A DNA stretch of 64,000 bases from positions 70,484 to 134,483 of the forward strand of contig JAHIVT010000091.1 in NCBI GenBank assembly GCA_018816555.1. The letters run 5' to 3'. The translations under genes were made by a program, and so were the position numbers. Under the pieces are notes generated by a model. It was not told where the DNA came from, ran no database searches, and was given only the letters and a program-made list of their open reading frames with translations. Source of the DNA: Pseudomonadota bacterium. GTDB taxonomy: Bacteria; Desulfobacterota; Desulfobulbia; Desulfobulbales; SURF-16. Shown piece after piece: positions 63,474-63,999 of this stretch (the stretch's first letter is position 1; each line of letters opens with the position of its first letter).

Positions 63474-63543
63474 GAAGTCAGAAGTCAGAAGTCAGAAGTC
63501 AGGAGTCAGGAGTCAGGAGTCAGGAGACAGAATTCAGGAGTCG
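63474..63543. repeat. tandem array of ten 7-bp units (GAAGTCA x4, GGAGTCA x3, GGAGACA, GAATTCA, GGAGTCG)
   Basis: Read directly from the sequence. The array starts 15 nt upstream of the DUF255 gene start and overlaps the last codons of the four-helix-bundle gene. Confidence 0.85.
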
Positions 63544-63902
63544 GCATGCAGTAGGGCAGCCATATAAGACCCCAGTAATTTACTGATCTCTTCAAGTTGT
63601 TCTGTTAATTTTTTGTTTTCGCCATAGCCGAGATCGTTGGCTAAGATCAGATAATACCGGCATTCTTCCAGCGATCCTTGGGAAATATTAAGAAATCGCG
63701 CTTTGTCCGGTTTTGTTCTTTTTTTGAATCCCTCGGCAATATTGGCGGGAATGGAAACAGCCGCTCTTCGCGCCTGAGACGTAAGCCCGTAAAGTTCACT
63801 TTGCGGAAAATTGCTGCTGTAAGCATAAAGTGACAAAACAAATGCATGTGCCTTCTGCCAGACGATAAGGTCTTCAAATCGTTTTGCCGGTTCTCTGCTC
63901 AT
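63534..63902 (-). CDS. four-helix-bundle protein (23S rRNA intervening-sequence protein / Avd family)
   Basis: From ATG 63902: MSREPAKRFEDLIVWQKAHAFVLSLY...SQARRAAVSIPANIAEG...GSLEECRYYLILANDLGY, the typical PF05635-type pattern. Confidence 0.85.
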   Translation of the reverse strand: MSREPAKRFEDLIVWQKAHAFVLSLYAYSSNFPQSELYGLTSQARRAAVSIPANIAEGFKKRTKPDKARFLNISQGSLEECRYYLILANDLGYGENKKLTEQLEEISKLLGSYMAALLHADS

Positions 63903-63999
63903 TCTGTCTTCCAACTCCTGTCTCCTGTCTTCTAACCCCTGACTCCTCCCCCTCCAGCACCAGCTCAATGGGCTGGTGGTCCGAGCTTCTGATATGGTA
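63874..63999 (-). CDS. 3' end of an endonuclease/exonuclease/phosphatase-family-like gene (5'-truncated by window edge)
   Basis: The minus frame reads YHIRSSDHQPIELVLEGEESGVRRQETGVGRQNEQRTGKTI*. SDHxP near the C-terminus is the EEP signature. The tail after ELVLE is encoded by the heptad array. Confidence 0.35.
   Translation of the reverse strand, partial: YHIRSSDHQPIELVLEGEESGVRRQETGVGRQNEQRTGKTI
63902..63957. repeat. degenerate inverted heptad array (TCCTGTC/TTCTGTC/CCCTGAC type), reverse-complementary to the 63474-63543 array
   Basis: TTCTGTC TTCCAAC TCCTGTC TCCTGTC TTCTAAC CCCTGAC TCCTCCC CCTCCAG. Units are reverse complements of GACAGGA/GTCAGGA-phase units of the left array. Confidence 0.6.

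Follow-up and report, generated by a model that had tools for sequence, protein, structure and literature searches.

The window analysed here, a 64,000-nucleotide stretch of contig JAHIVT010000091.1 from a genome of the Desulfobulbales, contains close to its end a small cassette in which a gene of the PF05635 four-helix-bundle family is enclosed by two inverted arrays of 7-bp repeats (heptads). We lean, though only slightly, towards reading this cassette as an element of the intervening-sequence (IVS) type that lies inside an operon instead of an rRNA gene, and that consists of an upstream heptad arm, the PF05635 gene and a complementary downstream arm. It is inserted directly after the stop of an EEP (Exo_endo_phos) gene, in the short spacer before a DUF255 gene. 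The reading draws on the complementarity of the arms, on the recurrence of the layout in relatives of the gene and on its likeness to the IVS of Coxiella burnetii.

Organization of the cassette

All features of the original prediction, which had been made from the letters of the stretch, were found where it had placed them, with the minus strand as the reading strand, including ten heptads on one side and about eight inverted ones on the other that bracket a 122-codon PF05635 gene (Table 1). On the plus strand the downstream arm reads exactly (GAAGTCA)4 (GGAGTCA)3 GGAGACA GAATTCA GGAGTCG over 63474-63543, which on the minus strand is CGACTCC TGAATTC TGTCTCC (TGACTCC)x3 (TGACTTC)x4. Tandem Repeats Finder (TRF) returned it as the top short-period array of the 64 kb, with period 7, 10.0 copies, 88% matches and a score of 91. 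The upstream arm (minus strand, 63948-63900) is built from the units GAGGAGT CAGGGGT TAGAAGA CAGGAGA CAGGAGT TGGAAGA CAGAATG, for which TRF gave periods of 7 and 21 at 63904-63947. The ATG of the PF05635 gene (63902-63900) is inside the last of these units, CAGAATG, and at the other end the last two codons and the TGA lie in the first heptads of the downstream arm, an overlap that had been noted from the start. The first two to three units of the upstream arm overlap the native 3' end of EEP, which probably puts the actual left boundary of the insert near 63931.

The two arms make up a 47-nt inverted repeat with 79% complementarity. The proposal that they could pair in a transcript around the open reading frame (ORF) held up on folding: minus-strand RNA of 63460-63970 gave -166.8 kcal/mol against -137.4 +/- 6.25 kcal/mol in 100 shuffles (z = -4.7), none of which folded as well, and its minimum-free-energy structure pairs arm with arm. 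The energy of the arm-arm duplex was -75.8, compared with -45.7 when the arms were shuffled. The same preference was observed across loci, where duplexes of a locus's own arms averaged -40.1 against -25.9 for shuffled arms (own arms better in 74 of 86 loci, p = 5e-13) and against -32.8 for the arms of other loci (p = 1e-4). The heptad variants also co-vary between both arms of one locus (z = 7.1).

The arms hold translation signals as well. On the sense strand the upstream arm is free of stops in all frames and presents a Shine-Dalgarno-like GGAG every 7 nt, and the downstream arm offers TGA in all three frames within 21 nt; the openness of the one and the three-frame stops of the other arise because a 7-nt unit is no multiple of 3. 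Arm-encoded N-terminal extensions are found in the database proteins P0161, P0136 and P0142 (e.g. RSQEPGARSQ...), and gene callers have also joined a NagZ-like glycosidase to PF05635 via read-through, in one product of 493 aa.

Read-through is also seen at the locus itself. The EEP frame, translated as ...SDHQPIELVLE, continues through the upstream arm and stops within the PF05635 ORF, leaving the tail ...YHIRSSDHQPIELVLEGEESGVRRQETGVGRQNEQRTGKTI. The array was correctly supposed to supply the C-terminal tail of EEP, and it does so owing to a 1-nt frameshift, as the closest relatives (L082 and L001) carry one extra A and stop in the EEP frame at the TAG equivalent to 63934-63932. The missing A lies at ~63950, where the minus-strand run is GGAGGGGGAGG in the window and GGGGGAAGGAG in L082 and L001, and EEP thereby gains 19 codons overlapping the PF05635 ORF; the shift is either genuine or due to a sequencing error in the homopolymer. 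On the other side the array ends before the DUF255 start as predicted, at a distance that is 14 nt and not 15, with the DUF255 ATG at 63459.

Table 1. Features of the EEP/DUF255 junction in the window
Feature	Coordinates	Strand	Basis and remarks
EEP (Exo_endo_phos) gene, 3' end	63874..64000	-	runs past the window end; reads through the upstream arm to TGA 63876-63874
Upstream arm	63900..63955	-	7 YAGRANN heptads (63948-63900) and a weak eighth unit (63955-63949); TRF, inverted-repeat search
PF05635/TIGR02436 'four helix bundle protein' gene	63534..63902	-	122 codons (63902..63537) and TGA 63536-63534; Pfam, TIGR02436
Downstream arm	63474..63543	-	10 heptads complementary to the upstream arm; TRF, inverted repeat, fold
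Native spacer remnant, 14 nt	63460..63473	-	...AACACCATG, common to the junctions L084 and L086 (empty or differently filled)
DUF255/thioredoxin-domain (YyaL-like) gene	61345..63459	-	PF03190, E = 4.9e-76; co-oriented junction marker, outside the cassette

The GC content of the cassette is 45-49%, and that of its PF05635 gene 45%, against ~60% in the neighbouring genes. Neither a second PF05635 gene nor a second array of the cassette heptad was present within the 64-kb window, and no promoter-like or terminator-like site was found in 63000-64000. A permissive Rfam search of the region yielded no relevant family and no rRNA match, and PADLOC gave no defence-system match. The window also holds an unrelated heptad array (CAATCCG x4.9 at 42180-42213) and 15/30-nt tandem repeats at 60229-60413, within the pentapeptide-repeat gene at 59925-61298.

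The encoded protein belongs to PF05635 (127.5 bits against a cut-off of 33.8, E = 3e-37) and to TIGR02436 (119.2 bits against a cut-off of 24, E = 8.8e-35). An alignment of 10 diverse members showed the motif G..R...S...N..E with S50, N54 and E57 invariant and R46 and G58 nearly so; the motif has been noted for the homologues of Xcc0516 (PMC3936711). Xcc0516 (PDB 2GSC) is the closest solved relative of the window protein (E = 1.7e-20) and forms a pentamer of four-helix bundles, an assembly that the window protein may share, judging by this similarity. The family is large, with 20,655 clusters at 50% identity matching at E <= 1e-3, and the proteins of the cassette relatives are basic (median pI = 9.1). 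Family-model searches detected no transposase domain in the cassette, and no nuclease, recombinase or polymerase motif was recognisable in the PF05635 protein. Its gene has a dN/dS of 0.12-0.23 among four intact orthologous cassettes, and the protein is kept by purifying selection.

Recurrence of the layout across the family

As the original prediction implied that other PF05635 genes would carry such arrays, we looked at the relatives of the window protein. A scan with one genome per species found 478 of them, and the counts given here rest on the best 80 (65-95% identity), which are not independent, as several share one junction. A locus was scored as armed when it had at least 2 phased YAGRA heptads within 150 nt upstream and at least 2 phased complementary (TYCTR) heptads downstream. 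By this test arms were present on both sides in 62 of the 80 loci, with a background of 18 and 19 of 2088 windows in the same loci (~1%); the upstream arm taken singly was found in 64 of 80, against 18 of 2088 background windows. Overall, 62-68 of the 80 close relatives have flanking arrays, and so do 9-10 of 13 distant relatives, with other units. The best 80 come from Cyanobacteria, Acidobacteria, Nitrospirota, Bacteroidota, Verrucomicrobiota, Planctomycetota, Firmicutes and Desulfobacterota. Their commonest units are CAGGAGT, CAGAATT, CAGGAGA, CAGGAGC and CAGAAGT, CAGAATG often holds the start codon, and translation ends at TGA in 62 of 80 loci, in 48 as part of TYCTGA.

Exceptional arrangements were observed in L243 (Pseudanabaena, 1000-1700), L051, L052 and L059 (Okeania, Sphaerospermopsis), where the downstream arrays are direct and not inverted, or the arrays are inverted relative to the gene and non-repeat spacers separate arm and ORF. 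These orientations may reflect inversion by recombination between the arms.

The position in an operon recurs along with the arms. Neighbours, taken from raw ORFs, share the strand of the cassette on the upstream side in 69 of 76 loci and on the downstream side in 63 of 77. Of 68 loci, 60 have a long ORF of this strand that comes to its end at the upstream arm, with the stop before the arm in 40 (median 10 nt), within the arm in 10 and past it, as in EEP, in 10; 59 of 68 have a long ORF that begins a median of 19 nt past the downstream arm. What the cassette occupies is thus the gap between two cistrons that run in its own direction.

The distant set comprised PF05635 genes on plasmids and in viral contigs. 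TRF found arrays of period 7 or 8 on both sides of 9-10 of these 13 genes, the two sides being reverse complements within one mismatch. Unit pairs in the distant set include GGTGACA / TGTCACC in plasmid pANA02 of Anabaena sp. 90, where the cassette lies between cas6 and cas4 and the upstream array extends over 273 nt, GGTTTAA / AACCTTG in Riemerella, TTAGCTG / AGCTAAA in Calothrix, the octamers GGGCAGGA / CTCCTGCC in Gemmatirosa, and CGTTACA / TGTAACG, GGCAGAA / TTCTGCC and GGCAGGA / CCTGCCT in three viral contigs (L251, L252 and L253, respectively). It is therefore the architecture that is conserved, whereas the repeat units differ and co-vary from one arm to the other. Repeat type tracks protein subfamily and not host: the CAGGAGT type spans ~8 phyla, and several types occur within Nostocales. 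The related Avd genes of diversity-generating retroelements (DGRs) stand apart, as inverted heptad arms were present in 0 of 5 genuine Avd genes (L254-L257 and the avd gene on pANA02, the same plasmid as the Anabaena cassette), and the loci L254-L257 have copies of the variable repeat (VR) and template repeat (TR) on both sides.

Some of the plasmid loci deserve mention in their own right. In pANA02 (L242/L258, 43.4-45.0 kb) and in Pseudanabaena pPg_01 (L243) the PF05635 cassette is set in a type I-D CRISPR operon, with cas6 on one side and cas4 on the other, a position that probably explains the listing of PF05635 as 'CRISPR-associated' (PMC3936711), and pANA02 has a third array in the cas4-cas1 spacer. 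In Nostoc punctiforme pNPUN02 (L259, 19961-20135 and 22341-22380) there is a gene-less inverted pair CAATTCG / CGAATTG with a spacer of ~115 nt and an extra AGGAGTC array, the latter 7 kb from the plasmid's PF05635 cassette.

Age, decay and loss of the cassette

The EEP, DUF255 and pentapeptide-repeat gene order is kept in L081-L087, all of which have a PF03372 EEP orthologue, and the junction could thus be followed with decreasing DUF255 identity. At 91% identity (L081) PF05635 is a pseudogene with a ~110-nt palindromic insert and frameshifts. The junction is occupied in L082/L083 (85%) and L085 (72%), and also in L002, for which no DUF255 identity is given. In L084 (82%) the gene has been lost and the heptads kept, as ...GGGAGTTAG followed by CTCCTCA x3 and CTTTTCA x3. 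No heptads are present in L086 (71%), which has a PhdYeFM antitoxin gene in the spacer, and L087 (66%) is without the cassette. The copy number of the downstream arm falls from 10 units in the window to ~4 in L082 and 3 in L081. In the relatives of this locus the cassette decays or was lost, leaving heptad footprints.

The insert that breaks the L081 pseudogene (GCA_022013535.1, ~2570-2680) resembles a miniature inverted-repeat transposable element (MITE) and reads GGAGCCGTTACGAAATAACATGGCC...GTTACGGCTCC. The antitoxin gene at the EEP/DUF255 junction of L086 encodes 81 aa (2736-2981). This spacer seems to be a recurrent landing place of small accessory genes. In L084 (2915-2990) all downstream units are TCACTCC or TCACTTT, compared with TGACTCC and TGACTTC in the window, a shared G-to-C change that removes the TGA stops; as it is shared by all copies, concerted evolution of the array is indicated.

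Among the four intact copies the dS of the PF05635 gene (0.13-0.76) is comparable in magnitude to the DUF255 values (0.38-0.64), which together with the dN/dS of 0.12-0.23 indicates that the cassette is old here and vertically inherited, with its protein under selection. The description of the locus as a small insertion cassette therefore stands as far as occupied and empty states go, and does not hold for a recent insertion at this site. Over the 80 loci the GC content of the cassettes follows that of their hosts (r = 0.87), ~8 points below it. An abnormally low GC3 through constraint was considered and rejected, since cassette GC follows the host and a deficit of ~8 points is usual for accessory genes.

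A second junction, in the PatA-type / PixH-CheY / CheW operon of Nostoc, also shows occupied, empty and footprint states, so that the empty sites anticipated by the original prediction exist here as well as at EEP/DUF255 (L086 and L087, with heptads only in L084). The PatA/PixH junction is occupied in L018, L021, L040 and L058, and it is empty in L260, L262, L263 and L264, whose spacers of 31-66 nt are without heptads; the empty-junction strains are Nostoc C117, Nostoc UHCC 0302, Scytonema hofmannii and a PCC 7107-like strain. A footprint (TTTAGAATTAAAAATTCTGACTCTTGACTCCTG) is left in L261, Nostoc DSM 114161. When present, the cassette is located 5 nt past the upstream stop, with the entire native spacer, including the Shine-Dalgarno sequence of the next gene, to its right. 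A target tetranucleotide like that of IS200/IS605 was tried and dropped, as the 'TTAG' common to the two junctions did not generalise.

Comparison with rRNA intervening sequences and proposed working

The original prediction had likened the topology to that of rRNA IVS, and the comparison bears this out. IVS of 23S rRNA that contain an ORF (the 'S23p' ORF, PF05635) are known from Leptospira and Coxiella burnetii. The IVS in the 23S rRNA gene of Coxiella burnetii has a PF05635 ORF preceded by AGAAGA, three GACAGAT units and GACAGAA-TG (PMC4990558). Its stem of terminal inverted repeats is cut by RNase III at the start of the first repeat, as established in vitro and from mapped ends, and the number of its heptamers varies between strains (PMC4990558). 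The cassette likewise combines a PF05635 ORF with complementary ends that form a long stem around it, and its ...CAGGAGT TGGAAGA CAGAATG keeps the same unit register before the ATG as the GACAGAT x3 and GACAGAA-TG of Coxiella. Heptamer number varies in both, between strains in the Coxiella IVS and between relatives in the cassette, and each is regarded as a selfish insert. In bacteria of the candidate phyla radiation (CPR), too, PF05635 ORFs are found within 16S and 23S insertions, at scattered positions. Complementary termini with a stem and a PF05635 ORF after tandem heptamers are thus common to the cassette and an IVS, whereas location in an rRNA gene is not: the cassette lies between two protein genes in an operon and not at helix 25 or 45 of 23S rRNA. 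It further differs from an IVS in having long tandem arrays on both sides, and in an ORF that is intact and under purifying selection, that of the Coxiella IVS being reported as decaying.

On this basis the working of the cassette may be pictured as follows. It would have no promoter of its own and be transcribed by read-through from the host operon, and the arms are predicted in silico to pair in the transcript into a long stem around the ORF, which would tolerate changes in register and copy number because each arm is a tandem repeat. By analogy with the Coxiella rRNA IVS, RNase III would then cut the stem and free the element from the host RNA, making the insertion nearly harmless. As read from the sequence, the arms would double as translation signals, with GGAG and AUG upstream and UGA in three frames downstream, and ribosomes ending the upstream gene at or in the arm would open the stem, a form of translational coupling. 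The basic four-helix-bundle protein would probably bind the heptad nucleic acid and serve the upkeep or spread of the element.

Several points weigh against this picture of an IVS-type element. RNase III cleavage has been shown only for the Coxiella rRNA IVS, and the mRNA-embedded stem is an in silico result. A four-helix bundle of 122 aa is not known to have a function in mobility. The cassette behaves here like a gene that is stable and passed on vertically, the dS of its PF05635 gene tracking host dS and its GC that of the host (r = 0.87), and the purifying selection might just as well reflect a benefit to the host. Neither a target-site duplication nor a conserved flanking motif was detected at 68 left and 75 right ends or in the comparisons of occupied with empty sites. 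Several of the 80 relatives share one junction and are thus not independent, and the neighbour analysis was made from raw ORFs. Finally, gene-less arrays are ~50 times commoner than gene-associated ones among the matches listed in the scan described below, and the arms may be repeats of a kind that existed beforehand and not a part of the element.

Gene-less arrays and alternative explanations

Viral contigs and metagenomes were scanned for the exact 21-mer (CAGGAGT)x3, which favours long, perfect arrays and is held by only 6 of the 80 cassettes. At least 32 such stretches were found in viral contigs and at least 120 in metagenomes. Among the matches listed, the PF05635 gene adjoins 0 of 32 viral stretches and 2 of ~91 assessable metagenome arrays; an inverted partner lies no more than 3 kb from about half of the sense arrays, usually at 6-250 nt and with unrelated loops, and both loops of 340-420 nt in the metagenome sample are PF05635 genes. 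Heptad arrays are therefore not specific to the gene, as gene-less arrays and hairpins far outnumber it. Near cassette-holding loci extra arrays are ~15 times as frequent as expected at random.

Gene-less mini-cassettes or hairpins beside full cassettes or in phage contigs were observed in L007 (1960-2090), L004 (2870-2970) and L096 (7001-7050). One mini-cassette reads CAGAAGC CAGAAGC CAGTAGA CAGAATG, followed by an 18-codon ORF and then by complementary heptads, and one hairpin reads CAGGAGT x3 CAGAATTCTG TCTTCTG GCTCCTG.

Heptamer repeats have been described from several bacteria. Xanthomonas campestris has 186 GGGAATC arrays, 70 of them as convergent inverted pairs 21-67 nt apart (PMC4692102 S2 Table A), and the spacers that hold pairs include groES-groEL, atpA-atpG and gltB-gltD (PMC4692102). 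In the same table, array #15 lies 6 nt past accB (bccP) and overlaps the start codon of XCC0516, the PF05635 protein that has been crystallised, a connection that its authors did not draw. For the heptamer repeats of Beggiatoaceae, cyanobacteria and Bacteroidetes horizontal spread is suspected (PMC4679880). These simple sequence repeats (SSRs), such as the short tandemly repeated repetitive (STRR) sequences of cyanobacteria, GGGAATC of Xanthomonas and TAACTGA of Beggiatoaceae, resemble the cassette arms in being tandem 7-nt units in intergenic spacers with variable copy number. They are often found between co-oriented genes, a few nt past the upstream stop, often as convergent inverted pairs, and vary in length (PMC4692102, PMC4679880). 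The published SSRs have been described alone, with no link to PF05635; the cassette arrays differ in that they bracket a conserved gene and hold its start and stop.

One explanation that takes these arrays into account is a two-component repeat system like that of RAYT and REPIN (a transposase-type gene and its repetitive hairpins) or of a transposon and its MITEs, in which the PF05635 protein would be the trans-acting partner that binds, propagates or maintains heptad hairpins. The repeat-flanked gene would then be the master copy and the gene-less hairpins non-autonomous or footprint copies, maybe co-opted for RNA processing or translational control. In a pattern that may match those systems, a single gene is flanked by inverted short repeats that also occur as gene-less hairpins in sequence collections and in the published Xanthomonas table, and occupied, empty and footprint states are all found. 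The excess of gene-less arrays and hairpins over the gene, the inverted partner of about half of the sense arrays (among the matches listed) and the ~15-fold extra arrays near cassette loci all fit such a system, and the footprints at two junctions (L084 and L261) show that hairpins can come from cassettes. That heptad type follows protein subfamily and not host, and that a Xanthomonas GGGAATC array overlaps the start codon of XCC0516 (PMC4692102 S2 Table A), point the same way. Workers on Nostoc also postulate a protein partner for heptamer repeats. The PF05635 protein, however, has no recognisable nuclease, recombinase or polymerase motif; linkage of arm and gene in transfer would by itself make heptad type follow subfamily; and in pANA02 the GGTGACA arrays occur only beside the gene. 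The cassette is also unlike RAYT in that its protein is a PF05635 four-helix bundle and not an HUH/Y1 transposase or a known recombinase, and its arms are variable-length tandem microsatellite arrays and not the fixed palindromes of RAYT/REPIN or MITEs. Inverted arms are present as in a transposon or MITE, but neither a target-site duplication nor a transposase domain accompanies them. We consider it unlikely that the cassette is the master copy of such a system.

Somewhat less likely still, in our judgement, is that the gene is a passenger. Heptad arrays born by polymerase slippage would be kept in spacers between cistrons as regulatory or structural elements of the host (Shine-Dalgarno reservoirs, RNA processing sites or G-quadruplexes), and the PF05635 gene, a small accessory gene of the ordinary sort, would be merely tolerated or captured in hairpin loops, with no functional tie between its protein and the repeats. 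Heptamer repeats are indeed known to be over-represented in bacteria, and the descriptions from Calothrix (STRR), Beggiatoaceae (TAACTGA), Xanthomonas and Nostoc name no gene that goes with them; solo arrays are also found among phage genes where PF05635 is not nearby, and hairpin loops hold unrelated sequences. However, as arrays occur in ~1% of windows, chance would place correctly oriented ones on both sides of a gene about once in 10,000, and they were observed so in 62 of 80. The association also extends over the family despite differing units, with the exception of the Avd branch, the arms incorporate the start and stop codons, and no other recurrent cargo was seen, both metagenome loops of 340-420 nt among the matches listed being PF05635 genes.

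The last alternative ties the cassette to a DGR. The original prediction had pointed to a decayed DGR at 30-35 kb; in this alternative the PF05635 gene would be its Avd gene, left behind or still in service. PF05635 is homologous to Avd, the cassette protein sharing its four-helix-bundle fold, small size and basic character, and bAvd forms a pentameric assembly. Weak matches were obtained to the Avd models PF22296 (bAvd; 23.4 bits against a cut-off of 40) and NF033474 (27.2 bits against 80) and to PHROG 3206 (E = 3.7e-7). In the 30-35 kb region there are a NACHT/STAND NTPase ORF (30183-32240), a FGE-sulfatase-domain ORF (32191-33279) that, beside this NTPase, resembles a DGR target, and a DDE_3 transposase ORF (33869-34489); at most the region looks like a DGR-target-type gene pair interrupted by an insertion sequence (IS). 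The link to the cassette is effectively refuted and hence very improbable: all Avd-specific scores are far under their cut-offs, no reverse transcriptase or Avd is found among the ORFs of at least 90 aa at 29-36.5 kb, 30 kb from the cassette, nor was a template repeat found there, though no search aimed at template or variable repeats was made, real Avd genes are armless and flanked by VR and TR copies (L254-L257 and the pANA02 avd), and the cassette, whose neighbours are EEP and DUF255 and not a reverse transcriptase, TR or VR, occupies the same junction in relatives irrespective of any DGR.

Significance for the PF05635 family

Taken singly, heptamer repeats, STRR and the ORF of the IVS have all been described before. 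Beyond the Coxiella IVS, we found no literature linking PF05635 genes to heptad arrays and no general rule that joins the three in the searched literature; most subscription journals were outside its coverage, and a prior description is possible.

We raise as a tentative proposal, in which our confidence is clearly low, that PF05635 proteins are dedicated partners of heptad hairpins, forming a two-tier element of master cassettes and gene-less hairpins or footprints that, in most bacterial phyla, colonises the spacers between cistrons and the structural RNAs 23S rRNA, 16S rRNA and RNase P RNA at their helices; STRR arrays were reportedly described by Vioque in 1997 inside cyanobacterial RNase P RNA. 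If this partner reading is true, it would account for the heptamer excess (STRR, GGGAATC, TAACTGA and others), for the origin of ORF-containing and ORF-less rRNA IVS and for the ancestry of Avd.

The cassette described here ties together three loose ends, namely the ubiquitously annotated PF05635 family, to which no function is assigned, the heptamer excess in bacteria and the origin of rRNA IVS, a question that goes back to ~1990. It comes with a checkable rule, that non-Avd PF05635 genes lie in operon spacers between inverted short-period arrays that contain their start and stop codons and whose arms co-vary. The finding also explains a number of annotation artefacts, such as N-terminal extensions, read-through fusions, assembly breaks at arrays and 'CRISPR-associated' PF05635 genes between cas genes. 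The recurrence of the layout across phyla and in rRNA IVS points to a widespread, largely undescribed small genetic element.

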